Virus genome (UHGV): UHGV-0179428
DNA length: 64,000 nt
DNA from: a virus
Strand: one strand, 5' to 3'
The position numbers were made by a program, and so were the translations under genes. Shown here piece after piece: positions 8,501-43,892 of this stretch. How positions within the stretch are numbered: the stretch's first letter is position 1; every line of letters starts with the position of its first letter. The notes under the pieces were generated by a model, which saw only the letters and a list, made by a program, of their open reading frames with translations, did no database searches and was not told the origin of the DNA.

Positions 8501-9779
8501 TCGCTATCTGCGCATTGACCTAACTACCAAAACCTGTAAGTTGGGGATTGGTTCCCGTTCAGATTCTGCTGTTACGGATATTCCGTTAGTGATGGAGGAG
8601 TCTGGGGAAACGGCAGTGGCCGCAACGTTTAAGGATGTGTTGTTCAACGGTGAGGAAACCAACGCGGCGACGCTCGACTTGATAGGTTGGGGTGCCAGCC
8701 GAGATAAAATTCCTGCAAACCATGCACCTCGTGGCATGATTCGCTATCGTTACAACGTAAACAGTCGGGTATTACGTTTAGCACTGACGTTCTCACAGTT
8801 CGGAACGACAACAGTTAAACATCGACAGCTGGAGATTCAATTCCCGTTCGATTTAGTGGATTATTTCACTGGCGACGGTGTGGGATTGTCGTTTAAAGAA
8901 CTGTCTGCGAAATGTCGTGTAACGATTAGTCACGCGCTGATTGATCCGGCTACGAGTAACGTCGACATTGATAAGTACCATTACTTACGTTCGTTGTTCG
9001 AATCGTATCTGGATTCGTCCGTTGGGTATTTGGCTGATACCAAAGACGTTGATTTTAGTCAGTCTGTGATTGACCCTGCGACTTATGAGGTTAGTCAAAA
9101 ATACCGCGTTACAGAAAGCATCGCGCTGCCAACCGGCCAGGGAAGTGTTGCTGTTTCCCATGACGGTCAGTTGCCTGCGCAGTTCTTTGACCGTAAGCTG
9201 TCTCGTGGTGCCTTGATGGCCAAGAAAGGTGAACTCAACGCTTCCTGGAATAATGAGTGGAGCACGACTAAAGCTGCTGCGAGTCGTTATCGCCATAAAC
9301 TCATTCTACGCTTTGCACAAGGTGCTGATAAACAGCAGTATCGCGTTGCAAAAGTGGCCGGGACGGTGAAGTCTAACTGGCCGGGTAAAGTGATTATCGG
9401 TGATGCCGGGAAGGACCCGTATGTATCGGCTATTGATAGCGTATCTTTTGCGCTTTCGACCGCCTCTGATACAGGTAAAGCGATTACTCTTACGCCAAAG
9501 GACTTACGTGTAGGTCAAGACATTTATATTGTCTTAGAACCGCCCGGCAATAATCCAGAAGGTTATGAACTTAACTTCACTTGTTCGTTAGATGTCACTG
9601 ACGAGAAAAGTGTCCGTCAAGATCAACTCAATGCACAGAGTTTCGAACTCCGTAGCGGCGAAAGTCAGTTCTTAATGGAGAAACGCAACCCGTACCACAT
9701 CACGAGTAAAGCGTGGAAGTGGATTCTGGCTGTACTGAAACGAGAACTTAACGGGAAGCAGTTAGGGGATCGTACTTAG
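5598..9779 (+). CDS. giant tail fibre protein (about 1393 aa)
   Basis: ATG at 5598 after AAGGAG (track start 5595 is TTG); shared N-terminal module (RPFFEDLVV...GVDYEL); fibre motif KADLGLGQADNTADLDKPLST and HHH box; terminator follows at 9817-9854. Confidence 0.85.
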   Translation: MKAYPYDPRGTKAENHFLEERIIGSENNNDRVVILDHRPFFEDLVVRQPGSTTPLSRGVDYELQYQLTELDDSVAANVYCGVHLINPSIKGIVTFEGQMLGGTFYDPFVDILDELVKYLNNPVSADWLLLDGRPSLYPATPAATSWADLLNKKYLASAVHDIELKTDDANQLIKDKLAEVKALVTALGKEIEAFNYPAHIAAKNPHETTSAQINAHPVNLKTPDTFMAYGLKLKALTDELKAFRLPQSVIDTYISHWISSEVRGVFNCTVSGNRAQFRSKNGESEIIFANDGFTLKSNGSVVLAVGHLEGTGAGRYINWRAGKNTLRIESTGDALGMNKLTLNGNPLLTTTALMEYQQDPDAGGSGGGDPDDSKVYIEGRNGISFTGKGSRTDPIVGTIDPTKATTAEKGVVKLKTGKGTETVGVAATPASLTPYSTDLSGYVAKTTMINGKPMNDGSRTITKADLGLGQADNTADLDKPLSTELTKAVSGLADVGHHHDWSELGIYKASQSVYGIGRYATNQNGLVENRAVVPNILKELSARLSVVAAAIANAKEGTVTDFAAVKGADWRFNSQGTAISVQDLKYFYLLDGTKGDSTVTGAIDLQTTPMFNWFSPNNQLELTWATGKVSNGTGINWTGIEEPPLMGFQSVPVGKTATQMGDQSVVTVLAKTRVKAYQPKLWVYAAGGGPVTVYINGIQAATGQSPLVAVYETSSDVENYTVAVKAECSDTTKSAAVQFEVYDGDYPVYFSGPETRVELLQEFVTTHVGVRHYLYVNMLTGSLYSRAEPIQSIAVDPERGYIGYVDIVPGQSYANKTVGFETTFDFGKSAEVSEHISTRKAHGLSAVDWALTDNPRLPLLNRAIAEPRACIFRKPLATATGDVFHLVSRGLYTYAHNQNVKSSLQYVVIPEGATPYCWFTPFNPKENNAPTFEGSFAFDVDDVGGTQALAAAPDLVLCTSTQGSSVKRRYLRIDLTTKTCKLGIGSRSDSAVTDIPLVMEESGETAVAATFKDVLFNGEETNAATLDLIGWGASRDKIPANHAPRGMIRYRYNVNSRVLRLALTFSQFGTTTVKHRQLEIQFPFDLVDYFTGDGVGLSFKELSAKCRVTISHALIDPATSNVDIDKYHYLRSLFESYLDSSVGYLADTKDVDFSQSVIDPATYEVSQKYRVTESIALPTGQGSVAVSHDGQLPAQFFDRKLSRGALMAKKGELNASWNNEWSTTKAAASRYRHKLILRFAQGADKQQYRVAKVAGTVKSNWPGKVIIGDAGKDPYVSAIDSVSFALSTASDTGKAITLTPKDLRVGQDIYIVLEPPGNNPEGYELNFTCSLDVTDEKSVRQDQLNAQSFELRSGESQFLMEKRNPYHITSKAWKWILAVLKRELNGKQLGDRT

Positions 9780-25681: not shown

Positions 25682-26272
25682 TCATTTTACTAACCCCGCC
25701 TTCGCCACATAATCCGGCATTTCCCTGAACACACGTGCGTACCAACCGTAAGCGAATTTTTCATTCTTCTTACGCTTTTCGGAGATTTCTGTGTAGTAAG
25801 TTACCTGGTGTGAGATTAATGCAAAGATTAAGATGCCTAATCCTTCGTCTTTACGGTATTTCAGATAAGCATTCAGGGCACCTAGCGTTTTAGGCCCCAT
25901 CCCCCCGTCGGTGTCAATATCTGCGTAAAGCTTCCCTTCGTTATTTAAAACGTTGAGAATACGTTGTAACGATTTCACACAGTTAACGCGGCCAGAGTTA
26001 ATAGCAAAATCAAACATCCGGTCTGCGAGCAAGGGTGAGATAGCGAAAATCTCATCGAGTTTAAGTTTCTTCCACCAACCGCGATCGTAAATATCAAACG
26101 CCTGCGCACGGGTCAGATCCTTCATTCTTCCTTTATACCCGTATTCGCGTGCAGTTGTTAGTGTTACACCGTGACAGGTTTCCCCACCTTTATCGTCGGG
26201 GTCGTTCACGTACCCACCTTCTAAATCTGTTTTCGAAGCAATAATACCTTCTTTAGTCCAACGTTCGGCCAT
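25682..26272 (-). CDS. endolysin, glycoside hydrolase family 108 with C-terminal peptidoglycan-binding region
   Basis: N-terminal LEGGYVNDPDDKGGETCHGVT is the GH108 signature; strong RBS AAAGAGGAG. Confidence 0.75.
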   Translation of the reverse strand: MAERWTKEGIIASKTDLEGGYVNDPDDKGGETCHGVTLTTAREYGYKGRMKDLTRAQAFDIYDRGWWKKLKLDEIFAISPLLADRMFDFAINSGRVNCVKSLQRILNVLNNEGKLYADIDTDGGMGPKTLGALNAYLKYRKDEGLGILIFALISHQVTYYTEISEKRKKNEKFAYGWYARVFREMPDYVAKAGLVK

Positions 26273-26333: not shown

Positions 26334-26810
26334 TTATTTCTTCTTAGCGCGTGATGGCTTAGCTGGCGGTGTTTCAACAGTCGGTTTACGCGCAACACGC
26401 ACTGTAAAACCACCGACCCAGGTTAGGCACTCAGGACGGAAGAAAATGCCGTGCTCGATTGCACTGCCGTCCAGCGGTAACTCACCAACCTGCTCTACCC
26501 ATACGTCGTCTTCAGTAAGGGTTAAGCCATACTGCTCGTTAATTACAGGCAACAGGTCCGCAGTCGTGGTTGCTGTCTCAACTAACAGTTTCGGCAATAC
26601 GTTGAGGAAATACAAACCTGCATCGATACGATTATACTGGAACGTTTGCTTATTAGCATAACCGAGATTCTTAACCGCCACAACCGTAATTTCGGTGTTG
26701 TACGCACCGGTACTTACGACGGGCTCACCCAATGTAACTTTGGCGGTGTCAAGCTCAGCGTCTGGGTTAGCCTTTTTAATAAGGTCGAAGATAGTTTCTT
26801 GACTGGTCAT
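26334..26810 (-). CDS. ELDGFT-family-related protein (158 aa)
   Basis: N-terminus ETIFDLIKKANPDAELDTAKVTLGEP resembles the family N-terminus; basic C-terminal tail. Confidence 0.65.
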   Translation of the reverse strand: MTSQETIFDLIKKANPDAELDTAKVTLGEPVVSTGAYNTEITVVAVKNLGYANKQTFQYNRIDAGLYFLNVLPKLLVETATTTADLLPVINEQYGLTLTEDDVWVEQVGELPLDGSAIEHGIFFRPECLTWVGGFTVRVARKPTVETPPAKPSRAKKK

Positions 26811-26823
26811 TACTGTAATCCTC

Positions 26824-27672
26824 TTAATCTAAGAATCCCGGTAAGACCGAATTAGTTTTAGCTAATTCAATCTTCGACTTCGGACGATCGGTTCCGTTAA
26901 AGTGGATTAACAGATTACCGGTCAGGTTAGCACACAGTCCACTGAGTGCGAGTACCAGCACACGCGTGTACTTCGTATTTGCGCCTTCGTAACCTGCGGT
27001 AGGGCCATCGTACATAACCTTGGCACCGTAGAGGTTATTAGCAGCGTTTTTAGGTACGCTTACCCATTTCTCATCAACGACGTTAACCAGTTTAGTGGCT
27101 AACTCAGCCAGGTCGACAGTGTCGTTAATGGTAATCGGATCGAGGTAATCTTTTTCTGCGGTGAAGTCAATTGGATAAGAATAAACCGCTGCGTTACCTT
27201 TCTTAGTGGACGGATACTCTACCAGGTTTTCTAATTGAGTAACAGGTAACAGTTTAGCCAGATCAATAGGATCGCGTAGCGTAAGTGTCACCTCGCCACA
27301 CCATTCGTAGGATTTCTCATTAGCGGTAAACTGATGGGTTTCACCTTCAACTTTCGCATCAATGATATCCGACGGCAGGATATTTAAATCGTATTTTGCG
27401 TTGATTGCATTAAGCAAATCTGCAGCGGTTACAACACCATCGTTACCGAATACCAACTCACCTGTTAGGTATTCGGGCAAGTTACGACGATGATAAGTCA
27501 CAGTTAAAGTAGTAGACTCATCGCCTTTGAGTTTAGAAGTCAGAACCACCTGGGTATCAACCCCAGTACCAGTAGGTTCGCCGATATCAACATCACTGAA
27601 GGTCAATGGCGGAACAATATTGTTTTCAGTGTTGATGAGTTTTAGCAGTTTCTGTTTTGACGTAAGAGACAT
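26824..27672 (-). CDS. ELDGFT-family-related protein (282 aa)
   Basis: N-terminus KLLKLINTENNIVPPLTFSDVDIGEP, C-terminal SVLPGFLD. Confidence 0.7.
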   Translation of the reverse strand: MSLTSKQKLLKLINTENNIVPPLTFSDVDIGEPTGTGVDTQVVLTSKLKGDESTTLTVTYHRRNLPEYLTGELVFGNDGVVTAADLLNAINAKYDLNILPSDIIDAKVEGETHQFTANEKSYEWCGEVTLTLRDPIDLAKLLPVTQLENLVEYPSTKKGNAAVYSYPIDFTAEKDYLDPITINDTVDLAELATKLVNVVDEKWVSVPKNAANNLYGAKVMYDGPTAGYEGANTKYTRVLVLALSGLCANLTGNLLIHFNGTDRPKSKIELAKTNSVLPGFLD

Positions 27673-27839: not shown

Positions 27840-28271
27840 TTAACGAACGTTGTGTGCTAAGTACATCAGAGAACGAGTGTCGGTGTCACGAGAAGTTTGT
27901 GACATCTGGCTCAGTAACTTGTTGGCGGTAGGATCGCTATAAAGACGTTTTAACCATTCGTCAACCATTTCTGGTACAGTGTCGACCAGCAGTGGATAGT
28001 TAAGATTTTCCAGTGTGTATTCAACGAATTCGTGCATCAGATTCTGGTCACGATACATGGTGTCACCTAACTCACCTGCGGGATACTCTTCACGAGGACG
28101 TTTACCCCAGCTACAAATCTCCATATAGGCCGTGTTTACAATCTCTTTGTATTCCTCTAACTTAAGTAAATCGAAGCCAGTATTCGGGCGGCAGAAACCT
28201 ACTAAAACGCTCAGAGCAATAGGGTTGTTACGAACGTAGTTACGGATTTCATCATTTAATACGAAAAACAT
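27840..28271 (-). CDS. hypothetical protein (143 aa), paralog of 29483-29911
   Basis: Strong RBS CCTAAAGGAG; similar to the ORF at 29483-29911 (NDEIRNYVRNNP vs NSDLRDYIRKYP, shared Cys/Trp positions). Confidence 0.7.
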   Translation of the reverse strand: MFFVLNDEIRNYVRNNPIALSVLVGFCRPNTGFDLLKLEEYKEIVNTAYMEICSWGKRPREEYPAGELGDTMYRDQNLMHEFVEYTLENLNYPLLVDTVPEMVDEWLKRLYSDPTANKLLSQMSQTSRDTDTRSLMYLAHNVR

Positions 28272-28340: not shown

Positions 28341-29462
28341 TTAACGAAATTTTTGACAAGCAGGGCAATCGCAGCCTATACCAGAAGATATTTCTCTAAA
28401 GATCGCGTCGAACGAGTGCTCATTATTCTTAAGAAAACGAGCTCCCGCCAAGTCACGCAGATGAGTTTTTAACTTTCCGATAATACCGGGTTCATAGTTG
28501 AGTAGAATGGTAAGTGTATTGTCTGTGTAAGTCCACTGACGGACTTTCTCAGGAAACCAACGAGCGATATCGCGCATAAACGTATCGGCATCTTCTTTCC
28601 CAATAGTAGTGATTGTTAGAAGACGTAGACGTTTGTCAACAATCTCATTAATGAGGTTGCTAATTTCTTCGTCAAGAGCAGCGTCCCACCATTTCCATTT
28701 AATGGTGAGTTTTTCGCCCTCGAGTTTAGTCTCTACTTTGGTAGGATAGAAAGCTGTCAAGGTATCATTAATCGCTTCGGCCTCTGGGCCAGTGTAAGTA
28801 AAGGAATACGGTTCTTCGAACCATTTAATAACGTCAGGATCATTATCAACAAGCACGGTTAGCGTGCCGTCGACATAATTAGACCCACGAATTTTCTTTT
28901 TGTATTCGTGAACAGCACTACGCATGACTGCATCTGCGTCTTCTTTTCCGATATCACGAACCGAAATAAGTCGAACGGCGTCTTTGACGATCAGAGCAAC
29001 GATGATGCGAATAGCTTTCATGATCTTAGGATCGAATTCCTTCATCCTGAAAGCCAACATGTCGTATTTTTGACTAATGTATAAGGCGTCGGGATAGAGG
29101 ATATTTAATGCTTCTTTAATTTTCTCGATCGTTTCGACATCATATTGATTTACGTATGACGTGTCATCATTGCCTACAGACCACTGCTGGTCTTTGACTT
29201 TCGGTTGCTCAGCCTCGGTCGCTTTTACCTTGGCGTTCTCGGCTACCGGGTTGAGTAACTCACCGATTTCCACCGCAATAGTGTCACAAAGATAATCGTT
29301 GCAGTGAGTCCAGTAGAATACGATGCTTTCATCGTTGACCTGCTCTACACGGAAATACACACCTTTATCCAGGAATATGCGATAAAGTTGATCGAGTAAC
29401 TGTGCTTCGGGAACCGGACGGATTTCAGTTTTAACGAGCGGGGTAATTTCGATATTAAACAT
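28341..29462 (-). CDS. hypothetical protein (373 aa) with internal duplication
   Basis: Two copies of an IGKEDAD.(V/F)MR...YTD.TLT(V/I)L segment. Confidence 0.7.
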   Translation of the reverse strand: MFNIEITPLVKTEIRPVPEAQLLDQLYRIFLDKGVYFRVEQVNDESIVFYWTHCNDYLCDTIAVEIGELLNPVAENAKVKATEAEQPKVKDQQWSVGNDDTSYVNQYDVETIEKIKEALNILYPDALYISQKYDMLAFRMKEFDPKIMKAIRIIVALIVKDAVRLISVRDIGKEDADAVMRSAVHEYKKKIRGSNYVDGTLTVLVDNDPDVIKWFEEPYSFTYTGPEAEAINDTLTAFYPTKVETKLEGEKLTIKWKWWDAALDEEISNLINEIVDKRLRLLTITTIGKEDADTFMRDIARWFPEKVRQWTYTDNTLTILLNYEPGIIGKLKTHLRDLAGARFLKNNEHSFDAIFREISSGIGCDCPACQKFR

Positions 29463-29482: not shown

Positions 29483-29911
29483 TTAGCTGTAATTGTGCTT
29501 AAAGAACTCTAAAGCACGCTGGTCGTTTGTAATCGCCGTTGTGGACATTCGTTTCAACGCTTGGCGGCAGTAAGGGTCGTTCAGAATACGTTGCTGCCAA
29601 GCATTGACTATTTCCGTCACTGTTTCCCCTTCTACAGCAGTGTTAAGTTTATCGAGGCAGTGTCGCCCTAACAGAAACGCAACCGCATAATCTGTAAACA
29701 TCTCGGTGCCGAAATCCCCGTCGGGATAATCGCAACGTTTACGTACTGACGTTGCGGTAATGGAGTTATATGCGGTTTTTATTATCTCGTGAAATTGTTC
29801 CACAGTTAAGACGTTAACGTCAGTACCTGAAAGCGTAAGTGAAGCCAGTACAGGAATACTGGCTGGATACTTACGGATATAATCACGCAAATCTGAATTG
29901 AGTGTTTTCAT
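29483..29911 (-). CDS. hypothetical protein (142 aa), paralog of 27840-28271
   Basis: See paralog. Confidence 0.7.
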   Translation of the reverse strand: MKTLNSDLRDYIRKYPASIPVLASLTLSGTDVNVLTVEQFHEIIKTAYNSITATSVRKRCDYPDGDFGTEMFTDYAVAFLLGRHCLDKLNTAVEGETVTEIVNAWQQRILNDPYCRQALKRMSTTAITNDQRALEFFKHNYS

Positions 29912-33447: not shown

Positions 33448-34275
33448 TTATTTAATATTCTGAATTTCTCTCATCTCGTTACAAAACTTATCAAACAGCT
33501 GGCCGTATACACACTCTCCAAAAAAGTGGTGTGCAAAGCGCTGTCTGATTTCCTTTTCGTATTTCTCGAGAACGTGTTTAAAAGATTCACTGTCTCTCTT
33601 AATTTTCTTCGCATGGGTTTCCAAAGTTTTAAGAAGTCGTGGTTCGTTTTTGATCAGGAGATGCAAGTCACCTTTAAGATATCTGCTTTGATAAATCATT
33701 ATTTTGGCGAGCTTGTGTTCACCTTTCACAACACTGATAAGCTCATCAGCACCGGCTTCTGTAATGTTTTCAACGGTAAATAGCAGAATATTTTCACCCT
33801 CTATATCTTTCAATAATTGATTTATACTAGCGCGATAAGCAGTATATTCATAGCTCACTTTAAGCATGTTGTCTTCAATCACATACGTGAATTTATCGCC
33901 GAAAAAATGGTATAGTATTGGTCCAATTTTATCTGCTTGTTTGGGGGTAAGTGGGAACTCCTTTGTGTAGTAAGCGACGTCTTTCGTAGTTGGCTTGTCC
34001 TTTAACCCACAAGTCGACTGTTCTGGTAATTCTGGATCTTTAGACACCTCAACAGACCGTACTAAAATATCCGTAATCGCACTAATGAGTTTGTTAGGAA
34101 AATCGACATCACCTTCTACCCAGAAAATGTTAAATGATTCCGATTTAACTTTATAGTAAAAGGTGTACGCTTTTTGTAGCTCAGCAATTTCCTTAATTTG
34201 TTCTTCAGTAGGGATAGGGGAGATCTTAAATCGGCTGATGACTTTTTCTTCTTCGGTGAGTTCGAACTGTAACAT
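33448..34275 (-). CDS. hypothetical protein (275 aa)
   Basis: Long ORF. Confidence 0.65.
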   Translation of the reverse strand: MLQFELTEEEKVISRFKISPIPTEEQIKEIAELQKAYTFYYKVKSESFNIFWVEGDVDFPNKLISAITDILVRSVEVSKDPELPEQSTCGLKDKPTTKDVAYYTKEFPLTPKQADKIGPILYHFFGDKFTYVIEDNMLKVSYEYTAYRASINQLLKDIEGENILLFTVENITEAGADELISVVKGEHKLAKIMIYQSRYLKGDLHLLIKNEPRLLKTLETHAKKIKRDSESFKHVLEKYEKEIRQRFAHHFFGECVYGQLFDKFCNEMREIQNIK

Positions 34276-35663: not shown

Positions 35664-35697
35664 AGGTAGTAGGGGCTAAGCCCCTACTACCTAAAAA

Positions 35698-36318
35698 TTA
35701 CTTCATTCCGTTCTGAGAAAGTGTTGTCCCTGCAAGATGTTTAATAACGATCTTAACAGGTAAATTACCATTCTCGTACTGTACTTCGGTTTCAGACAAA
35801 TCGTCGATATTGATAACTTTAGAGGGTACCTTCGCTAAAACAACACGAATGGTGTGGGTTATTGTACTGGCTGTAGTTTTTGTATTACTAACGTAGAAAT
35901 ACGCATCAATAATACTACCATCCGCTGCCAGGTAAACCAATTTATTTTCCAACAGGCACTGGCTATAAATTGACACTCCTGATAATTGCGAAACACCCAG
36001 CCTGTTGTTAACGTCAACCGTTGTTTTGCAGATTACCGCACCACCCGTCAACGTTTTTTCTACTACCATATTTCCCGATAAGGTTTTTGCATCTATTTTT
36101 GGTACTACCGGATGAGCACCATTAACAAATAACCCATCGTTATTAGACTTAAGGATGTTATTCGCCGACGGACTCACTGTAACCTCAGTACCCCCTAATT
36201 TCTCAATCGGGAGTTGGTATTCAGTTTGTTCCTTAGACGCTAAGACTACTACACCCGTGACGTCTTCTGAAAGTGTCGGCAGTTCGTGAACGCGTACCTT
36301 TCCTACCAGTTCAGTCAT
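35698..36318 (-). CDS. short fibre-like protein (206 aa) sharing its N-terminal module with the long tail fibre
   Basis: MTELVGKVRVHELPTLSEDVTGVVVLASKEQTEYQLPIEKL aligns with the fibre N-terminus MAKAVKKIRLHDLRPYTGDIGEGVLLFSKDEKDYKLPVREI. Confidence 0.7.
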   Translation of the reverse strand: MTELVGKVRVHELPTLSEDVTGVVVLASKEQTEYQLPIEKLGGTEVTVSPSANNILKSNNDGLFVNGAHPVVPKIDAKTLSGNMVVEKTLTGGAVICKTTVDVNNRLGVSQLSGVSIYSQCLLENKLVYLAADGSIIDAYFYVSNTKTTASTITHTIRVVLAKVPSKVINIDDLSETEVQYENGNLPVKIVIKHLAGTTLSQNGMK

Positions 36319-36833
36319 TGGCGACCTCCGAATGTTAAGGCACGGTTATCTGCAGTGACGATTAAATCGTTGTCTTTTACTACAGCGGCTTCTTCGTCGT
36401 TACCGAAAACCAGAACGGAGAATTGACCTTTATAACCTAACGAGTTGGGTGAAACCTGTAATGTTACAGTGTCTCTCCCTACGGTAAATGGTTCGTCGGT
36501 AAGATCTTCGGCTTGTAAATTGCAACCACAAGCCGCGTTAATTCCGTCGATTAGATCGTGTGCGGTAAAGCCATTACCGAAAACCTTTACCAGAATAGGC
36601 TGCTGGTTTAACCACCGCTCTGCGGTTAAACGGTTGTAATAGATCTGTAACGTTCTGTTGCCAGGACGTTTGATCTTTACAACAGCGGTAGTATCACGAT
36701 CCATTTCATCGCTGATCTTTACTTCGCTGATTTCAACCTCATTCTCTTGCAGATTGAGCTGAAGGTCGTGGTTGATCAGCGAAATAACCATGTTAGGTGA
36801 GGTTAGCGACAAATCTGGCACGAATTGTCCCAT
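36315..36833 (-). CDS. hypothetical protein (about 172 aa), paralog of 42865-43431
   Basis: Probable start ATG 36833 (MGQFVPDLSLTSP); conserved VPDLSL, LINHD and CG.NLQ(A/P)EDL segments shared with the paralog. Confidence 0.65.
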   Translation of the reverse strand: MGQFVPDLSLTSPNMVISLINHDLQLNLQENEVEISEVKISDEMDRDTTAVVKIKRPGNRTLQIYYNRLTAERWLNQQPILVKVFGNGFTAHDLIDGINAACGCNLQAEDLTDEPFTVGRDTVTLQVSPNSLGYKGQFSVLVFGNDEEAAVVKDNDLIVTADNRALTFGGRQ

Positions 36834-36921
36834 AAGCTTACTCTCTACGGTTGGGGGATAAAATGATTCTAGCAATATTTTATCCCCGATTATATTTTCA
36901 AGCGCATTCAGTTGAAAATAA

Positions 36922-37425
36922 TTAGCTAATTCTCAAATCACGCAGCGCGCCTGTTGATTTCATCACGTTTTGGAACGCAGCGCTGATGTTATTAGTCCAG
37001 TAATAATGCTGTCCGTTAATAACCTGCTGATAGGTCAGCGCGCAGGTGTTGCCACCTAAATTTACGGTAATGTTAGAGCCTCTGCCTCCTTGTAAGTAAA
37101 CCGCTAAAGTAGGCTTTGCGTTGGCAACTATCGTTGTTAACTGTAACTCAATACCTACTAAAGTTCCCACCCCGCAGTTACCCGCGTTTTGAATGGTTCC
37201 CTGATTTTTCTGGTTTAACGGCCAGCTTGGTCCTACTGCGCCCCATTTCTTACCTAAAGAATCGCTATATGCAGCGGTTGCAATTTTACAGCCCATAGAT
37301 CGTCCCACCATTTGACTCATCATAAAAGGTCTACCCAATCCTAATTTACTACCAGCGGCGCTCATCCATTGTTCGCCCGTTTCGTTCTTGGCCGAAGAAC
37401 CGACCCATCCAGATGCTACCCCCAT
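36922..37425 (-). CDS. gp38-like adhesin paralog (167 aa) lacking the poly-Gly region
   Basis: N-terminus MGVASGWVGSSAKNETGEQWMS parallels the T-even gp38 attachment domain; C-terminus divergent. Confidence 0.6.
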   Translation of the reverse strand: MGVASGWVGSSAKNETGEQWMSAAGSKLGLGRPFMMSQMVGRSMGCKIATAAYSDSLGKKWGAVGPSWPLNQKNQGTIQNAGNCGVGTLVGIELQLTTIVANAKPTLAVYLQGGRGSNITVNLGGNTCALTYQQVINGQHYYWTNNISAAFQNVMKSTGALRDLRIS

Positions 37426-37441
37426 CTACCCTCTTTTTTAA

Positions 37442-38224
37442 TTAAACACGTGAACCGTATATTGCACCTACTGCGTCCCATCTTGGCGCATTACCAGTAA
37501 CAGCTTTACCAGCTGCTCCGCCGTTATATTCTGTACCGTTACCTTGAGTATTACATCTTCCTCCAGCAGCACCGACATTACCACCCGAACCGCCTGTATA
37601 TGCACTAAGAGACCCCTCACCAACAGATCCTCTACCAGGAGCGGAAATAGTACCAGCAGCTGCACCGGAACTCATATGAGAGGAAGACCCACCAGCACCG
37701 AATGGGCGACCACCGCCACCACCAAATATTAGTCTACCCCTGTTACCGCCACCACCGCCGCCACCGCCTCCGGCAATAGCGCCACGGTTGGTTATACGCA
37801 GTCTGTTTCCTATTCCGTTCTGTATTGCGGTTCCACCTGCACCGCCTGGTGAGTTAGAACCGCCGTTGCCTCCTCTGCCGTATACTGTAACCCCAGGATT
37901 GATGATGAGGGTAATATACGAATTTGGAAGATTGCTAGGGAATTCTAAACAAGGAACCGTGCTACTATGGGACACTAAATCCCCCGTAATAGTCACAACG
38001 ACAGCAGTAGAGCCTAAAGAACGTAAATAGTTAATAAGCGTATCTTTATTGTAATTGTGATTAGCCCCGATCGAATACTGAACCTCTTTTGATTTTCCCG
38101 CCAATTGCGACATCCAGCCTGGAACCGGCACACCAAGTGTGCGCATCGCGCCAGACATCCATTCGTTACCAGCTTCAGCTTTTGCTGAAGAACCAATCCA
38201 ACCACCTACGCCGACAACTGCCAT
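37442..38224 (-). CDS. T-even gp38-like tail-fibre adhesin with glycine-rich motifs (260 aa)
   Basis: N-terminus MAVVGVGGWIGSSAKAEAGNEWMS and multiple poly-Gly blocks (GGGGGGGGG, FGGGGGRPFGAGG, AAGKAVTGNAPRWDAVGAIYGSRV), recalled from memory as gp38-like; immediately downstream of the tail-fibre gene. Confidence 0.7.
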   Translation of the reverse strand: MAVVGVGGWIGSSAKAEAGNEWMSGAMRTLGVPVPGWMSQLAGKSKEVQYSIGANHNYNKDTLINYLRSLGSTAVVVTITGDLVSHSSTVPCLEFPSNLPNSYITLIINPGVTVYGRGGNGGSNSPGGAGGTAIQNGIGNRLRITNRGAIAGGGGGGGGGNRGRLIFGGGGGRPFGAGGSSSHMSSGAAAGTISAPGRGSVGEGSLSAYTGGSGGNVGAAGGRCNTQGNGTEYNGGAAGKAVTGNAPRWDAVGAIYGSRV

Positions 38225-41200
38225 TAGGATCTTCCTTTAATTTCGTTAACCTCTTGACGCAACGCTTTCATACCCTCTACTAACAGCGCAATAACGCCAT
38301 TGTAGTTTAGACGTAAACGTTTTTCGCCTGAAATGGCATCATCATCCTCAGACACAAGTTCAGGTAACGCTTCTAATGCGTCCTGAGCAATTAGACCTAC
38401 AGAAGTCTGCCAGCCGTCATCAGGATGCTGAATTTCGTACAAATAACCGGTTAGTAACTCTAACCGATCCAAAGCTTTATCCAGCTTCACCAGATTACGT
38501 TTGTTACGACGGTCAGAACGAATCTGTACGTCGTTAAACGAACCGTTACCGTTGCCAGTAACGTTATGTCCAAAGTTTACTTGGCCGTTAGAATTATTAA
38601 AAGACAACGGGCGTAATCCGTTCCAGGAACCCGCTGCGGCTTGTCCGGCGTCGGTTACTAAGAAATAGGTATTGGCACCGTCGTTACGTAAAATAAAACC
38701 GTAGGTACCGTAAGCGATTCGAAAATCAGGGTATTTAGTGGCCAATTTACCGTTAACGGTTAAATCGCCGCCTATAGTACCGCCCCCCGAAGGTAGTGCA
38801 CCCACTTCTGCAGCAGTTGGCTTGTTTCTCGTATTGTAAGCACGACGCCAGCCTGGTGAGTATGTATCGCCGTTAAATACGTAGATAAACTCCGCATTAG
38901 TGAGTGCGCCACCGACGCTCGCCGTTGTGGCAGTCGTTATACGGATCGTGTAGTTGTTTGTGCTATTACCGTTACTAATCACTTCTATAACGGCCCCAGC
39001 TAACGGAATAACACCACAACCCGTCTCGCTGTGTGGTATGGACGCACTAGCGGCATAAGCCCATGCACAGCGAGCAACCCACGATCTTGTGGTAAATGCG
39101 CCGTTATTTTTCAATAACGTCACTAGCTGTGCTGTAGTTATTGCGCCGCCATCTTTGCCAGTTTCTAACCAACCACTAGGCGATGCCGGACAACCTATAT
39201 CGGCAGGTCCTAACGATATATTTCTAGTGCCGTCAAATGCGATACCGTTAATGGTTCTTGCGGTTTGCAACTTTGTTGCCGTGGCTGCGTTTCCGGTGGT
39301 CGCCTGATTACCTGTTTGGTTTACTCCAGGTAAACTGATGTCTTTAGTACCATCAAAAGCTACACCACCTATATTTCGCGCAGTCTGGAGCTTAGTCGCT
39401 GTCGCCGCATTCCCCGTAGTCGATTGGTTACCGGTTTGGTTTACGCCAGGAAGATTAACGTCTTTTGTCCCATCGAAAAGCACACCGCCGATCTTACGTG
39501 CGGTTTGTAACTTAGTAGCGGTCGCTGCATTACCTGTCGTATTCTGGTTGCCTTGCTGGTTAACGCCCGGTAAATTGATATCACCTGTACCGTCAAAGGT
39601 AACGCCTCCGATCCTGCGAGCGGTTTTCAGTTTCGTCGCGGTAGCGGCGTTGCCGGTAGTATCTTGATTACCGGTGGCATTTACGCCAGGAATGCTGTCA
39701 CGGGCAGTATAAACTTGTGCCCAATCTGACCACGGCGCATCAGCCGTATCACGTCGACTACGAATATAAACTGGCGCGTGCGCACCACTCGTCCCCGACC
39801 ATCCGATTAACAGCTCGCCTTCACCTAGCGCAGTAGAACCACCCAAATGCAATAAGTTACCATAAGCGGTTGGATAACCGTTATTGTAAACTTCGTACAT
39901 CTGAATACCGGGTGTACCTTTGTTTGATCCAGTCAGTGCAGTAACACGTCCACGTCCTACCAACGTGTTGATATTGATGTCTCTAGACCCATCAAATTTC
40001 ACACCGTTGATGTTTCGAGCCGTTTGTAATTTGGTTGCGGTTCCCGCGTTCCCAGAGGTGTTTTGATTACCCTGTTGGTTCACACCAGGGAGGCTAATGT
40101 CGCCGCTACCGTCGAAACTTACACCGCCGATTAAACGGGCTGTTTTCAGTTTTGTTGCCGTTGACGCATTACCTGTCAATTCGCCCGATAACCCTTTTGC
40201 AAAGGTCTGTTTTTCTGCCCACGTATGCGCTGCATTCAATACGGGCATCTGGCGGCTAGTAATAGTACGTTTACCCTTTTCACCAGCGACGCGAACAGCA
40301 AAGAAGCGATAGTTAGCAGTAGACACTGTACCACGCCAGACCAACATACTCCGGCCAGTACCGGTGTCCTCCGACGCCCCTACAAGAATAGTGACCAAGT
40401 TACCGTCGATAACACCCCAATCCATTCCCGCAGGAATGTTTTTCATGGTATTCAACGGTGTACTTATCATCTGGCCAGGAACGAAGTCGAATGTTTGCCA
40501 GTCTAACGGATCGACCTTAGCAGCAACCCCACCGATCCCTAAAGTCAGCGGGAGTGAATAGGATGTGAAAATCTCTCGCCATTCGCTCCAGGCGTTTCCT
40601 GTACGAATTCGTTGGAACTTGCGACCTTTCGAAGTTGCGCCTGTACCGTATGTGGTATAATTTTGTTCAACACCTGAACCGTCTAAGCGTAAGGTAACTT
40701 CGCAAACGCCTAGCAAGGTTGCGCCAGCAGAGTCTGTTAACGGACTGTCTGTAGCCTCACCGGTAACACTAAAGCGACCTGGTTTAGTTAAGTCGTTAAA
40801 GCTACCCTTATAGTAGGCACCGTCTACCTGATACCCAACCTGAATCCAATCTTCCCACTGCGGATTAGACGAATCCCAAGTCGCAGTCAAACCACGGACA
40901 TACATCGTACCATGTCGTGTGGTGTATCGTTGCAACCGTCCGTAAAGACCACCTTCCATGACTTCTAATACGCCTTGCGCATTACCGCCCTCTTCAGGAT
41001 AATGTCTGTCGAACACCGCTAACGAACTGGACGAGTTACGCCAGTTACCCATGTGCTCAGCGCCGCCTAAGGAGTTCAGATCGATCGATGTAGATAACGG
41101 GCGTACACCGGTAGTTACCATTCTCCACGGTGACCACGGGCCATTAGTTCCGTTCCACGCACCTGACAACATACGGTTGTACACGTTACCATTACGGCAG

Positions 41201-42666
41201 GTAAAACGTTGCGCTCCACTGTAGTTGCCCGCTTTATACACTTCCAGATAACCGACTGCACCGTCTTCTGGGAAGTGTTTTGCCATCGACGCATTGGTTG
41301 ATGTCGACTTGGACCATGTTCCTGTGTAATTAGCATCTGGAGCAAATGTGTTAATATCAGCATCTACAGGCATTTCGCCACGGAAACGCAGATAGGTATC
41401 AGGAGATAGGCCGATATTGCGAGCAAAGGTTTCTTTATTGGGGATATCGGCACCGTTAGAATTTTTCTGTAATGCGCCGTTTGCTTTATCAACGGTGGGT
41501 TTCAAACCCAGGAAGTTAATGATATCCGCAGTTGACCCTTTCGCTAACAAGGATCTGGCAGTTTCTGTAAAATCGGTTAACTCGACTTTATTAGAGCCCG
41601 TGAAATACAGGAGTTTGTTTGCTGCACTTGTAACCGCAGCGATTGCGGTGAGTAACGGACTGAGAGGTTGTTTCTGAGCAAGCTCCTCAGTGATCGTTGT
41701 TGCGAAGTTAGGGTCATTACCTAACGCCTCTGCTAATTCCGCTAAGGTATTTAACGTCTCGGGTGAGGAACCAACCAATTCAGCAATCGCGTCACGCACC
41801 CAGGACGTTGTGGAGATGCTCGTGTCATTCGAGTCCTTCGGCGGTTTTGGTGTTGTCGGTTTACCCGTAAAATTCGGCGAATGTTTATTGGCTTTTAACT
41901 GTAATTCGTCGTTCAGCTGTTTAACAGTGGACGGCGTGGCAGCCTCCGTCACGGATTCGCTAGTCAGGGTATCGTTAAGTTTAACAATACCTTTACCGGT
42001 TGTAGTAGCGTCAACTAAGCCTTGGGCGGCGATTTTCTCCGCACGTAGGGCAGCTGACTCCGAACGCGTAGCTGCCCCTTCTGAGCTTTCTTTATCTTTC
42101 GCGACCTGTGCAGCAATCTTCTCCACTGCACCTTTACTGGCCTCAACTGAAGCCGCAGTATTTTCAACGCTGGTAGCCGCCTGTTGAACTTGTCCGGCCT
42201 GTTGCGTAACCGTTTCTGCTTTCTTAGTTACATCAGCCGCCGTAGCCGTCACAGATTGTTCGGATGTGGCGACAGCTTGAGCCTTCTCATTTACTGATTG
42301 TGAAACAGTATCTACGGCAGTTTTCGCTGCTAAAACCTCAGCGTGTTTTTTGTTAACCTCCGCAGTTTTAGTGGCAACGGTTCCCGCTTGCTCATTAACT
42401 GTGGAAGCTAACGTGTCAGTTTGTTGCTTCGCGGTTTCCGCTAAATTTTTTGCTTGCGCAGCTTCTGTTGCAGACTGTTGTGATTTGGCCGCAGCCGTTT
42501 GTGCATCAGCAACCGCGTTTCTGACGGTGTCAATGTCCGCAACGATTTCGCGGACGGGTAACTTATAATCTTTTTCGTCTTTCGAAAAAAGTAAAACGCC
42601 TTCGCCGATATCCCCGGTGTATGGACGCAAATCGTGTAAACGAATTTTCTTTACCGCTTTAGCCAT
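38224..42666 (-). CDS. long tail-fibre protein (about 1480 aa) with C-terminal intramolecular chaperone (peptidase S74-like) domain
   Basis: Start taken as ATG 42666 (MAKAVKKIRLHDL); about seven 37-aa repeats GNQ.TTGNAATATKLQTAR.IGGV.FDGT.DI.LPGVNQ; C-terminal segment SDRRNKRNLVKLDKALDRLELLTGYLYE...GLIAQDALEALPELV typical of self-cleaving chaperone domains. Confidence 0.85.
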   Translation of the reverse strand: MAKAVKKIRLHDLRPYTGDIGEGVLLFSKDEKDYKLPVREIVADIDTVRNAVADAQTAAAKSQQSATEAAQAKNLAETAKQQTDTLASTVNEQAGTVATKTAEVNKKHAEVLAAKTAVDTVSQSVNEKAQAVATSEQSVTATAADVTKKAETVTQQAGQVQQAATSVENTAASVEASKGAVEKIAAQVAKDKESSEGAATRSESAALRAEKIAAQGLVDATTTGKGIVKLNDTLTSESVTEAATPSTVKQLNDELQLKANKHSPNFTGKPTTPKPPKDSNDTSISTTSWVRDAIAELVGSSPETLNTLAELAEALGNDPNFATTITEELAQKQPLSPLLTAIAAVTSAANKLLYFTGSNKVELTDFTETARSLLAKGSTADIINFLGLKPTVDKANGALQKNSNGADIPNKETFARNIGLSPDTYLRFRGEMPVDADINTFAPDANYTGTWSKSTSTNASMAKHFPEDGAVGYLEVYKAGNYSGAQRFTCRNGNVYNRMLSGAWNGTNGPWSPWRMVTTGVRPLSTSIDLNSLGGAEHMGNWRNSSSSLAVFDRHYPEEGGNAQGVLEVMEGGLYGRLQRYTTRHGTMYVRGLTATWDSSNPQWEDWIQVGYQVDGAYYKGSFNDLTKPGRFSVTGEATDSPLTDSAGATLLGVCEVTLRLDGSGVEQNYTTYGTGATSKGRKFQRIRTGNAWSEWREIFTSYSLPLTLGIGGVAAKVDPLDWQTFDFVPGQMISTPLNTMKNIPAGMDWGVIDGNLVTILVGASEDTGTGRSMLVWRGTVSTANYRFFAVRVAGEKGKRTITSRQMPVLNAAHTWAEKQTFAKGLSGELTGNASTATKLKTARLIGGVSFDGSGDISLPGVNQQGNQNTSGNAGTATKLQTARNINGVKFDGSRDININTLVGRGRVTALTGSNKGTPGIQMYEVYNNGYPTAYGNLLHLGGSTALGEGELLIGWSGTSGAHAPVYIRSRRDTADAPWSDWAQVYTARDSIPGVNATGNQDTTGNAATATKLKTARRIGGVTFDGTGDINLPGVNQQGNQNTTGNAATATKLQTARKIGGVLFDGTKDVNLPGVNQTGNQSTTGNAATATKLQTARNIGGVAFDGTKDISLPGVNQTGNQATTGNAATATKLQTARTINGIAFDGTRNISLGPADIGCPASPSGWLETGKDGGAITTAQLVTLLKNNGAFTTRSWVARCAWAYAASASIPHSETGCGVIPLAGAVIEVISNGNSTNNYTIRITTATTASVGGALTNAEFIYVFNGDTYSPGWRRAYNTRNKPTAAEVGALPSGGGTIGGDLTVNGKLATKYPDFRIAYGTYGFILRNDGANTYFLVTDAGQAAAGSWNGLRPLSFNNSNGQVNFGHNVTGNGNGSFNDVQIRSDRRNKRNLVKLDKALDRLELLTGYLYEIQHPDDGWQTSVGLIAQDALEALPELVSEDDDAISGEKRLRLNYNGVIALLVEGMKALRQEVNEIKGRS
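39230..39700 (-). repeat. tandem about 108-111 bp coding repeats inside the tail-fibre gene
   Basis: Visible DNA-level periodicity corresponding to the 37-aa TATKLQTAR repeats; a second shorter block lies near 40010-40230. Confidence 0.55.
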
Positions 42667-42864
42667 GATATTTAATTCTCTATCTGGAGCTAAAAGATCT
42701 GGGAAGGTAAAACACCCCCCCAACATTTTTATAAGCGGACTATTATACTGGTTTTAATCCATCATCTTCTAACGTGAAAGTGATGTCCAATTCCGCGTTC
42801 TCATGATCTGGGTTTACTAAGTCTTGATAAAAGTTTGTTTTGGCCTCCGTTACCGGTAAAACCG

Positions 42865-43431
42865 TCAAGTTCCTGTAGCCGGGCTTTCCTCAGCTGTGTC
42901 GTCATCTGGAACCTCGAATGTAAGAACGGCTTCATCATCAATACAGAAGATTGCATCTTCTTCGTTTGCCAATGCCCGTTCGGTTGTATCAAATAACGTC
43001 ACCATAAACGCATTCATCCACGCAGGAGAATCGTCAGCAACGTTAACAGCAATGGGTTCGTTACCTAAGGTGATATCTGCAGCACGTAAATCTTCGGGTT
43101 GTAAGTTCGTTCCGCAGAATTCATTTACAACACCTAAAATGTCACGAAGGTTGTCTTCAGTACCGTCTAACGAAATCAAAATAGGTTCAGACGCTAACAC
43201 TTCGTCCGCATCCAAACGGTCGTAATAAACAACCACAGAAGCACCATCAGGTTTCCTGATTTTTGTAATCTCTGTCAGTGTGTTACGACGCGATGTGGTC
43301 GGGGACGGGTTTGCCATAGTGTTGCTAATACGGATTTCGTTTAGAGACAACCGTGAACCGTTATCGTGGTTGATTAAAGCGACCACCAATTCGGCTGAGG
43401 CCAGACTTAAATCAGGTACGTAAGTAGTCAC
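42865..43431 (-). CDS. hypothetical protein (about 188 aa), paralog of 36315-36833
   Basis: Probable GTG start at 43431 after GGGAGG (VTTYVPDLSLASA); conserved blocks shared with the paralog. Confidence 0.65.
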   Translation of the reverse strand: MTTYVPDLSLASAELVVALINHDNGSRLSLNEIRISNTMANPSPTTSRRNTLTEITKIRKPDGASVVVYYDRLDADEVLASEPILISLDGTEDNLRDILGVVNEFCGTNLQPEDLRAADITLGNEPIAVNVADDSPAWMNAFMVTLFDTTERALANEEDAIFCIDDEAVLTFEVPDDDTAEESPATGT

Positions 43432-43440
43432 TAAAACCTC

Positions 43441-43491
43441 CCAGATCAAAAAAAATAAAAACACCTACCGCCCATAGAATCGGGCGGTAGG
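43441..43491 (-). terminator. rho-independent terminator downstream of gene 43518-43892
   Basis: Hairpin CCTACCGCCC-GATTCTAT-GGGCGGTAGG followed on the minus strand by TGTTTTTATTTTTTTT. Confidence 0.7.
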
Positions 43492-43517
43492 CGGTCATTT
43501 TGCAGCTAAATATCAAA

Positions 43518-43892
43518 TCAGACCGTTAGTTCTCCACATAACTCAACATCGATACCGAACGTCATTCCCACTTCTTGAAGTTTGTTCGCCAGTAGGTGAC
43601 GATGACAAAACTTACCTGCGGGACAATAGCACATCAAAACCAAATCTTCGTGTCTAAGCAACGAGACCAACGTTTCGGCATCGGTATCTAACAGTCGTTC
43701 GAGTTTGTACAAATACTTTACCGTGTATTCACGCTCAGCGCCAGCGTCTTGGGCAGAATTTTTATACGCCATTAGGAAATCCCAGTCGGGGGCGAGTTCC
43801 TTTCGCCCTGACTTCACAGTGATATCCACTGCGTGAAATCCTTTTTGCTTAGCTAACCGCCACTTAGCGAGTTGTAGCGTCCAGATACGCAT
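43518..43892 (-). CDS. hypothetical protein (124 aa), possibly DUF488-like
   Basis: C-terminal LVLMCYCPAGKFCHRHLLA loosely resembles the DUF488 CHR..LA motif; weak. Confidence 0.5.
   Translation of the reverse strand: MRIWTLQLAKWRLAKQKGFHAVDITVKSGRKELAPDWDFLMAYKNSAQDAGAEREYTVKYLYKLERLLDTDAETLVSLLRHEDLVLMCYCPAGKFCHRHLLANKLQEVGMTFGIDVELCGELTV

Follow-up and report, generated by a model that had tools for sequence, protein, structure and literature searches.

Host recognition by nucleus-forming jumbo phages is largely unknown, and DUF7941, a protein family characterised only in 2026, has been linked to receptor binding through a few fusion proteins of one phage. In phage Goslar, DUF7941 was described as a chimallivirus-specific module in which an N-terminal domain is followed by a disordered linker and, in part of the family, by a C-terminal domain; head-to-tail oligomers were predicted, gp22 filaments were seen by negative-stain electron microscopy, and anchoring of DUF7941 filaments at the peripheral baseplate was proposed (10.64898/2026.04.21.720040). 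Goslar virions contain gp22 and gp23, the most abundant DUF7941 virion proteins, as well as eight further DUF7941 proteins including gp91, and in gp86, gp92, and gp161 the module is fused to putative host-recognition domains, the cargo types being carbohydrate-binding, glycoside-hydrolase, and leucine-rich repeat (LRR) (10.64898/2026.04.21.720040). In phiKZ, gp127 terminates the gp139 band of every star lobe on the outer baseplate rim, the outer periphery is termed the fibre-attachment platform, and the fibres gp131, gp133, gp134, and gp135 attach there by a shared N-terminal domain of their own, not via gp127 (PMC13250141). Here, we describe a locus in a 64,000-nucleotide stretch of the virus genome UHGV-0179428 (hereafter "the window", meaning the whole stretch that was analysed), in which two paralogous small DUF7941 genes precede separately encoded proteins, a long tail fibre and a 206-amino-acid protein (p206), that open with the same N-terminal motif of approximately 45 amino acids (aa). 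Neither this split arrangement of DUF7941 and cargo nor the 45-aa motif is described in the Goslar preprint or the phiKZ atlas.

Two small DUF7941 proteins and a shared N-terminal anchor

The two small genes, DUF7941-A (42865–43431; 188 aa, with a GTG start at 43431) and DUF7941-B (36315–36833; 172 aa), are located on the minus strand at the coordinates given in a preliminary description of the locus. The DUF488 gene that is the upstream neighbour of DUF7941-A (43518–43892) and the fibre, gp38, 167-aa protein, and p206 genes considered below are on the same strand. DUF7941-A and DUF7941-B are paralogs, and both are DUF7941 domains. The paralogy, already proposed in that description, was borne out by pairwise alignment (BLASTP, E = 4e-31, 34% identity and 53% positives over 172 aa), which spans the VPDLSL, LINHD, and CG.NLQ.EDL blocks that had been named. 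Scores against the Pfam family PF25613 (DUF7941) are 68.4 bits for A and 66.2 bits for B at a gathering cutoff of 27, and the matches cover profile positions 3–153 and 3–166 of 276, which correspond to the N-terminal domain only. Judged by 45% identity and the same synteny after a DUF488 gene, DUF7941-A is the ortholog of SPN3US gp122 and Asesino gp139.

The AlphaFold2 model of DUF7941-B (overall predicted local distance difference test, pLDDT, 77) contains a confident alpha/beta domain at residues 1–145, with a pLDDT of 80–92 over most of it, and a disordered C-terminal tail at residues 150–172. When this model was compared with the PDB using Foldseek, the sole significant match was the N-terminal domain of phiKZ gp127 (9xqd_0; E = 8.5e-9; template modelling score, TM, 0.55–0.62) at approximately 19% identity, and the next-best fold match had an E-value of 0.08. 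The sequence profile of the paralogs likewise matches phiKZ gp127 in PDB entry 9XQD (E = 1.4e-4), and single-protein sequence searches of the PDB gave no match for DUF7941-A or p206. All genes tested in the block are under purifying selection, with ratios of nonsynonymous to synonymous substitution rates (dN/dS) of 0.13–0.14 for DUF7941-A and 0.09–0.21 for DUF7941-B. A DUF7941 profile search of 1.84 billion representative proteins identified 1795 representative clusters with the domain, including many proteins of approximately 170 aa, tandem arrays, and N-terminal fusions to proteins of 600–2900 aa. One tandem-array protein of 2250 aa has 15 matched stretches.

The long tail fibre (38224–42666; 1480 aa) and p206 (35698–36318; 206 aa) share an N-terminus of 41–45 aa, which occupies residues 1–45 in both proteins (42532–42666 in the fibre, MAKAVKKIRLHDLRPYTGDIGEGVLLFSKDEKDYKLPVREIVADI; 36184–36318 in p206). 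This similarity, also part of the preliminary description, was recovered both by pairwise alignment (fibre residues 1–41 against the p206 N-terminus, E = 1e-6, 34% identity, 68% positives) and with a hidden Markov model (HMM) of 13 anchors from other phages, against which the fibre and p206 score approximately 68–72 bits. SPN3US gp123 opens with the same motif (MATVVKKKRLHELDSYDGD..AVALISVDEKEYKLP); its N-terminus is 53–58% identical to the fibre anchor, and pairwise E-values against gp123 are 7e-9 for the fibre and 1.6e-5 for p206. The shared N-terminus is a true, conserved, and modular anchor, as had been supposed: it opens 17 proteins of six related phage lineages, among them SPN3US gp123 and five fibres of Klebsiella phage Eowyn, with the consensus Ma..v.KkrlheLp.y.g....GvlL.skd.keY.lp, and the first 60 codons of the fibre gene are under very strong purifying selection (dN/dS 0.03–0.13). 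In the monomer model of p206, the anchor does not fold alone, as residues 1–70 have a pLDDT of approximately 30 beside a beta-sandwich at approximately 90.

The 45-aa anchor profile, a query too short for the search used, retrieved only two fragments from an index of 5.8 billion proteins. The anchor is absent from Goslar gp25, gp26, gp29, and gp90 and from the SA002 region, and was not found in the Goslar regions 1–50 kb and 75–115 kb. Two further ideas about the anchor were dropped. Mimicry of the DUF7941 inter-subunit linker was not supported, at an hhalign E-value of 0.55 (13 anchors against nine full-length DUF7941 proteins); the best alignment did land on the linker region, but it was non-significant. 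A strict division into anchor classes cognate to A or B is also disfavoured, given that the anchors of two proteins of the related contig L027 (p273 and p710) are about equally similar (37–49%) to the fibre, gp123, and p206 anchors.

The stop codon of DUF7941-B and the start codon of p206 overlap (ATGA), and a GGAGG sequence is located 6 nt 5' of the p206 ATG. Residues 71–200 of p206 (35719–36108) form the beta-sandwich, which is modelled with confidence and has lectin-like and fibre-tip-like fold matches, and the C-terminal domain of p206 also terminates other phage fibres. The gene has a dN/dS of 0.14–0.33, and an ortholog at 50% identity (P0022) retains the full length. p206 is a short, anchored, lectin-like protein of the receptor-binding type.

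Gene order in relatives and loss of gp123 and gp124

In SPN3US, Asesino, Eowyn, and all relatives examined, a small DUF7941 gene is again followed by an anchored gene. Anchored arrays headed by a small DUF7941 gene include SPN3US gp122 and gp123, Asesino gp139 and gp140, those of the related contigs L014, L012/L016, and L026/L027, and three in Eowyn (gp229 before gp230, gp234 before gp235 and gp237, and gp238 before gp239). Once each is assigned to its own array, all 17 anchored genes lie downstream of a small DUF7941 gene. In SPN3US and Asesino, the DUF488 gene is followed by just one module, which in SPN3US consists of the small DUF7941 protein gp122, the 156-aa gp123, and the 1005-aa tail protein gp124. 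In Eowyn, five tail-fibre genes, whose products all open with the motif, are intermingled with four small DUF7941 genes. Viral contigs of the same clade as the window (L012/L016 and L013/L019) run from A through an anchored gp123-like gene, a gp124-like gene, the anchored fibre, gp38, and a Gp38_N protein to B, which in L016 is followed by p206. L027, from a more distant lineage, has the order A, p153 (anchored), p1001, the fibre (anchored), p273 (anchored), a DUF4376 protein, B, p205 (anchored), p710 (anchored), and a second DUF4376 protein. In relatives, 3–5 anchored proteins are encoded with only two small DUF7941 genes. The anchored cassettes of p273 and p710, each with its DUF4376 protein (8009–9388 and 10655–13357 of L027, and the same positions of L026), are not in the window, and these DUF4376 proteins may be fibre chaperones. 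A DUF7941 match inside p710 was spurious, as Pfam places an Ig-like domain (Ig_Rha78A_N) there.

In the window, both anchored genes lie downstream of a small DUF7941 gene. The genes of B and p206 overlap, as described above, and A and the fibre are 198 nt apart. This second adjacency is secondary because approximately 3.37 kb containing the gp123 and gp124 orthologs was deleted between A and the fibre. The interval holds the deletion scar (42743–42905), which fuses, out of frame, the opening 14–18 codons of a gp123-type gene (MTTQLRKARLQELDGFTGNGG) with the final 30–35 codons of a gp124-type gene (..NFYQDLVNPDHENAELDITFTLEDDGLKPV, compared with ..IYRDLAIPDHTTASLDITFTIPDDPLETN at the C-terminus of SPN3US gp124). 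The gp123-type pseudogene remnant (42801–42905, minus strand, 34 codons) is the 5' end of an anchored gene; it was found with the anchor HMM at E = 0.0025 among 2529 open reading frames and reads MTTQLRKARLQELDGFTGNGG before continuing out of frame to a stop. Its position is the exact start site of gp123 in SPN3US, Asesino, and L012, and the DNA aligns with that of intact relatives up to codon 14–18. The gp124-type 3'-end remnant (42743–42840, minus strand) matches the C-terminus of SPN3US gp124 and of the L012 ortholog. The length of the deletion relative to L012/L013 was estimated from blastn, which places the window from 42796 downstream on L012 10935–11235. One common scar is found in all genomes of the deletion lineage.

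Among the genomes lacking gp123 and gp124, DUF7941-A remains constrained (dN/dS 0.05–0.19, dS up to 0.27), which argues that it keeps a function independent of the gp123/gp124 cargo. Deletions are frequent at the locus among the relatives. L026, the sister of L027, also lacks gp123 and gp124 and keeps an anchor remnant, and a deletion in L019 (7504–7803) has removed p206 and the greater part of the next gene (p283) but left DUF7941-B intact. A small DUF7941 gene has thus outlived its cargo in L019 (B), as copy A has in the window.

These comparisons bear on two further points of the preliminary description. Its view that each paralog stands immediately upstream of an anchored protein is correct for B and p206, and for A and the fibre it has to be amended by the 198-nt interval with its scar. 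Its suggestion that each fibre has a partner protein of its own is retained insofar as the partner family is virion-structural and the gene order recurs; it does not extend to a one-to-one pairing of partner and fibre, as intact relatives run A, gp123-like, gp124-like, fibre ... B, p206 and the number of anchored proteins, 3–5, exceeds the two small DUF7941 genes, reaching five in L027.

How the anchored proteins may be mounted

The small DUF7941 proteins may be sockets or adaptors joined to the peripheral baseplate or to DUF7941 filaments, and the 45-aa peptide may be a plug that folds upon docking to these proteins, directly or at a site that they create. One socket type would then serve more than one cargo (one to three), and a single virion could show several interchangeable receptor-binding proteins. 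The arrangement would be a split counterpart of the fusions in which Goslar has DUF7941 and cargo on a single chain (gp86, gp92, and gp161), and the A/B duplication, together with the gain and loss of cassettes, would tune host range, the gp123/gp124 cargo having been lost in this phage.

Support for docking between socket and plug comes from Goslar gp92, by the Rosetta-stone logic that a fusion of DUF7941 to a gp124-type cargo in one phage points to association of the separate chains in another. Residues 277–1188 of gp92 match SPN3US gp124 at 37% identity (E = 0, 578 bits), and its N-terminus carries a DUF7941 module (10.64898/2026.04.21.720040), for which our own Pfam match was sub-threshold (E = 0.047, residues 45–142). 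The DUF7941 module and the gp124-type domain of this single chain thus follow the order that is split into gp122, gp123, and gp124 in SPN3US-like phages. A gp123-like segment was sought between the two domains (residues 150–276) with the HMM and shuffled Smith-Waterman alignments, which gave no signal (z < 1). The identity matrices of the DUF7941 proteins and anchors are also correlated across nine pairs (r = 0.64, Mantel p = 5e-4), and two cargos behind one socket have mutually closest anchors, at 52% identity for Eowyn gp235 and gp237 and 56% for the gp123-like protein and fibre of L012. Given the linkage, the gp92 fusion, and this co-divergence, we regard direct docking of the anchor to the small DUF7941 proteins as an even proposition. 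A broader generalisation, in which the peptide would be a universal plug with which chimalliviruses of the SPN3US and Eowyn clades hang interchangeable binders on dedicated small DUF7941 sockets, and these sockets copolymerise into the recently proposed cloud of DUF7941 fibres, is more tentative and seems to us somewhat doubtful. If true, host range would depend on which plug-bearing cassettes follow each socket, and attaching the peptide to another binder would suffice to re-engineer it.

Several observations weigh against the socket and plug. L027 has five anchored proteins and two small DUF7941 genes, a ratio that is not 1:1, and there are no clean A and B classes of anchor, as the p273 anchor is 47–49% identical to the fibre, gp123, and p206 anchors alike. 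Shared phylogeny explains part of the co-divergence signal. By hhalign, the anchor does not significantly resemble the inter-subunit linker of DUF7941 (E = 0.55), and no copy of the anchor was found among 259 proteins scanned, including 22 fusion or tandem DUF7941 proteins of 362–2032 aa. In Goslar, the small DUF7941 gene gp91 is directly upstream of the long fibre gp90, which has no anchor despite adjoining it; adjacency of a small DUF7941 gene and a fibre gene therefore needs no anchor. Moreover, SPN3US gp122 was not detected in wild-type virions, and the SPN3US "paralog family B" was assigned to the head, since it was seen in a tailless mutant (PMC5694885). This family (gp140, gp141, gp143, gp145, gp148, gp151, gp154, and gp160; 117–139 kb) is PF25613, and the head assignment conflicts with an exclusive baseplate location, as seen for phiKZ gp127 and proposed for the Goslar proteins.

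The main rival, and the one closest to the view of the preliminary description, is that all anchors plug into one conserved site of the baseplate or fibre platform that is not made of DUF7941, with the small DUF7941 proteins being ordinary filament or cap subunits encoded in the same late operon. The excess of anchors over small DUF7941 genes, the lack of anchor classes, the anchorless fibre behind gp91, and an anchor that resembles no part of DUF7941 would all be expected of such a common site, as would the use by phiKZ fibres of their own shared N-terminal domains at the outer periphery instead of gp127 (PMC13250141). However, a common site leaves it unexplained that each anchored array in the six lineages opens with a small DUF7941 gene, with stop and start codons that overlap, that Goslar gp92 combines DUF7941 with gp124-like cargo, and that the divergence of anchors and DUF7941 proteins is correlated. 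We consider it unlikely, if far from negligible.

The coding sequences of known fibre chaperones, S74 domains, Tfa, and DUF4376-type proteins among them, lie inside the fibre gene or after it, and elements of the S74 and DUF4376 types are already present at the locus or in its relatives. This argues against a role of the small DUF7941 proteins as non-structural factors in assembly, which would hold a fibre by its unfolded N-terminus until it is mounted and then be released, a role that we judge improbable despite the predicted disorder of the anchor alone. Such release would be in keeping with the SPN3US mass spectrometry, in which gp123 and gp124 were detected in wild-type virions and gp122 was not; gp122 was nevertheless seen, in one mutant preparation only, at a spectral count near that of gp123 in the same preparation (5 spectra compared with 6) (PMC5694885 and its supplements). 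The family is, moreover, structural: the baseplate model of phiKZ includes the N-terminal domain of gp127, and gp22, gp23, and eight more DUF7941 proteins, including gp91, are found in Goslar virions (10.64898/2026.04.21.720040). Very improbable, and largely refuted, is neutral decay, in which B and p206 would be a degenerating duplicate and p206 a truncated, unused fibre. The shortness of p206, the loss of p206 and most of the next gene in L019, and the frequent deletions at the locus fit such decay, but the dN/dS values of p206 (0.14–0.33) and B (0.09–0.21), the strong ribosome-binding site and overlapping start of p206, its full-length ortholog at 50% identity, and its confidently predicted lectin- or fibre-tip-like beta-sandwich, with a C-terminal domain that ends other phage fibres, do not.

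For the docking of plug to socket proposed here, the locus represents a genetically split and naturally variable version of the link between DUF7941 and receptor binding, with two putative sockets, two to five plug-bearing binders, and natural deletions of cargo, and makes the mounting of receptor-binding proteins on the chimallivirus baseplate directly testable. If the proposal is true, the 45-aa peptide would be a simple handle to retarget therapeutic jumbo phages against Salmonella, E. coli, and Klebsiella.

The locus, its phage, and comparison with known systems

The block from 35664 to 43493 is delimited at both edges by terminator-like hairpins on the minus strand, each with a 13-bp stem and a following T-run (TTTTTATTTT). 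The upstream hairpin (43462–43493; 9 GC pairs) sits between the end of the DUF488 gene (43518) and the GTG start of DUF7941-A (43431), and the downstream hairpin (35664–35692; 8 GC pairs) starts 6 nt past the p206 stop. A promoter scan, covering the sigma-70 type only, was uninformative, with 21 found compared with 18.9 expected. The window DNA has patchy similarity, at approximately 72–73% identity in syntenic stretches, to SPN3US-like and Asesino-like jumbo phages, and Seoulvirus and Eowynvirus belong to Chimalliviridae. By this synteny and DNA identity, the locus is encoded by a member of Chimalliviridae, and it is best explained as the variable locus for host recognition in an SPN3US-like chimallivirus, a jumbo phage of approximately 223 kb. 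The exact p206 sequence is present on contigs of approximately 223 kb from several metagenomes, and this sequence or near-identical homologs are also found in assemblies labelled Salmonella, Shigella, and E. coli. The phage occurs as a near-complete contig of approximately 223 kb in assemblies labelled Salmonella serovars Kentucky, Chester, Weltevreden, and Agona, and likewise in those of Shigella boydii, S. sonnei, S. flexneri, and E. coli, which hints at a carrier state or co-sequencing, together with a broad host range.

Two further DUF7941 genes are located on the minus strand outside the block, one of 282 aa matching the full-length profile (26824–27672; PF25613, E = 1.7e-52) and one of 158 aa matching the N-terminal domain only (26334–26810; E = 5e-30), followed by a Glyco_hydro_108 endolysin gene (25682–26272). 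This order mirrors that of Goslar gp22, gp23, and gp24, and the 282-aa and 158-aa proteins are likely the bulk filament subunits. Near the locus there are also small-gene pairs that appear to be paralogous (27840–28271 with 29483–29911, and 28341–29462 with 33448–34275); in one example, the paired proteins of 143 and 142 aa have a similar N-terminus (...NDEIRNYVRNNP... and ...NSDLRDYIRKYP...).

The fibre matches many PHROG tail-fibre families and, in Pfam, Phage_fiber_2 (residues 221–261), Gp34_trimer (1256–1355), and Peptidase_S74 (1384–1438). Its layout comprises the anchor, an Ala/Gln-rich segment that is coiled-coil-like by eye, a repeat shaft 51% identical to that of the Goslar fibre gp90, the Gp34_trimer region, and a C-terminal S74 intramolecular-chaperone domain, with the tip most similar to fibres of SSU5-like and P1-like phage-plasmids. 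The start of the gp38 gene (37442–38224; 260 aa) at 38224 overlaps the fibre stop; its product has a Gp38_N domain (E = 5e-14) and a glycine-rich GP38 domain (E = 5e-70), and the gene is approximately 78–82% identical in nucleotide sequence to gp38 of the Krischvirus phages RB49, JSE, and Phi1, and to CMS-2020a. With an S74-ended fibre directly followed by a gene with Gp38_N and GP38 domains, the locus encodes a T2-type long-fibre tip. A second gp38-type gene (36922–37425; 167 aa) encodes a Gp38_N domain (E = 3.5e-20), matches phrog_1121 "tail fiber adhesin" (E = 2e-45), and is a candidate alternative adhesin.

Mosaicism is seen in the tip of the fibre and in gp38: the tip (38224–39216) is most like those of the SSU5-like phage-plasmids CMS-2020a and Cyrano and of a P1 variant, and gp38 (37442–38126) is most like that of Krischvirus; the CMS-2020a record CP053388 matches the gp38 DNA and, at 68% coverage, the fibre tip, and CP054387 matches the fibre tip. 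The second gp38-type gene is swapped among otherwise near-identical genomes. In the window, where the two gp38-type genes span 36922–38224, it encodes 167 aa, in L004 (8614–9399) a variant of 181 aa at 37% identity followed by an extra 76-aa open reading frame, and in L011 (13051–13560) a variant of 170 aa at 63% identity, which suggests that these genes are alternative adhesins for one fibre tip. The window shares with T2/T6-type phages a fibre with an S74 chaperone domain at its end and a full GP38 adhesin encoded next, here at approximately 80% nucleotide identity to that of Krischvirus. The window differs in that the fibre is mounted on a chimallivirus by a foreign N-terminal anchor and that two distinct Gp38_N-domain genes lie behind one fibre.

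SPN3US gp122–gp124 and Asesino gp139–gp141 are among the closest known systems. Their module is the direct ortholog of module A, with 45% identity between the DUF7941 proteins and 53–58% between the anchors, and contains the ancestral cargo whose scar persists in the window. SPN3US has one module and one anchored protein, whereas the window lacks gp123 and gp124 and has an inserted block consisting of the fibre, two gp38-type genes, B, p206, and further genes up to a homolog of p171. In the literature searched, no function beyond detection by mass spectrometry has been published for SPN3US gp122–gp124.

Goslar shares with the window both the Pfam family of A and B and the architecture of gp23 and gp91, which have an N-terminal domain and a flexible tail but no C-terminal domain. 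In both phages a small DUF7941 gene stands beside a long fibre gene with a homologous shaft (51%), and gp92 has a cargo domain homologous to SPN3US gp124, the protein whose ortholog the window has lost by deletion. In Goslar, however, either DUF7941 and cargo form one chain or the fibre starts differently (with an N-terminus that is P2-gpH-like by eye), whereas the cargo of the window is a separate chain opening with the 45-aa motif. The modelled fold of DUF7941-B is that of the phiKZ gp127 N-terminal domain. In the virion, gp127 lies at the rim of the platform to which the fibres attach, and gp126 is likewise a protein of the outer peripheral baseplate (PDB 9XQD; PMC13250141). However, gp127 has 290 aa with a C-terminal domain, and the shared N-terminal domain of the phiKZ fibres is larger than the anchor. 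We know of no plug peptide in phiKZ.

The principle of several receptor-binding proteins with a common N-terminal anchor is well known. Phages with multiple receptor-binding proteins that have shared N-terminal anchor domains and adaptors include CBA120 (TSP1–4), G7C (gp63.1/gp66), and those with RaK2-type branched fibres. The gp131 paralogs of phiKZ also share an N-terminal attachment domain (PMC13250141). As in these systems, the proteins of the window combine a conserved N-terminal attachment module with distal domains that are exchanged as cassettes. The components appear to be new, as no description of a putative chimallivirus-specific DUF7941 adaptor and a 45-aa plug in natural split and fused forms was found in the literature searched. 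The window anchor differs from the attachment domains of the known systems in being far shorter (approximately 45 aa), predicted to be disordered alone, and unrelated in sequence, and the candidate adaptor is a domain specific to chimalliviruses, DUF7941.

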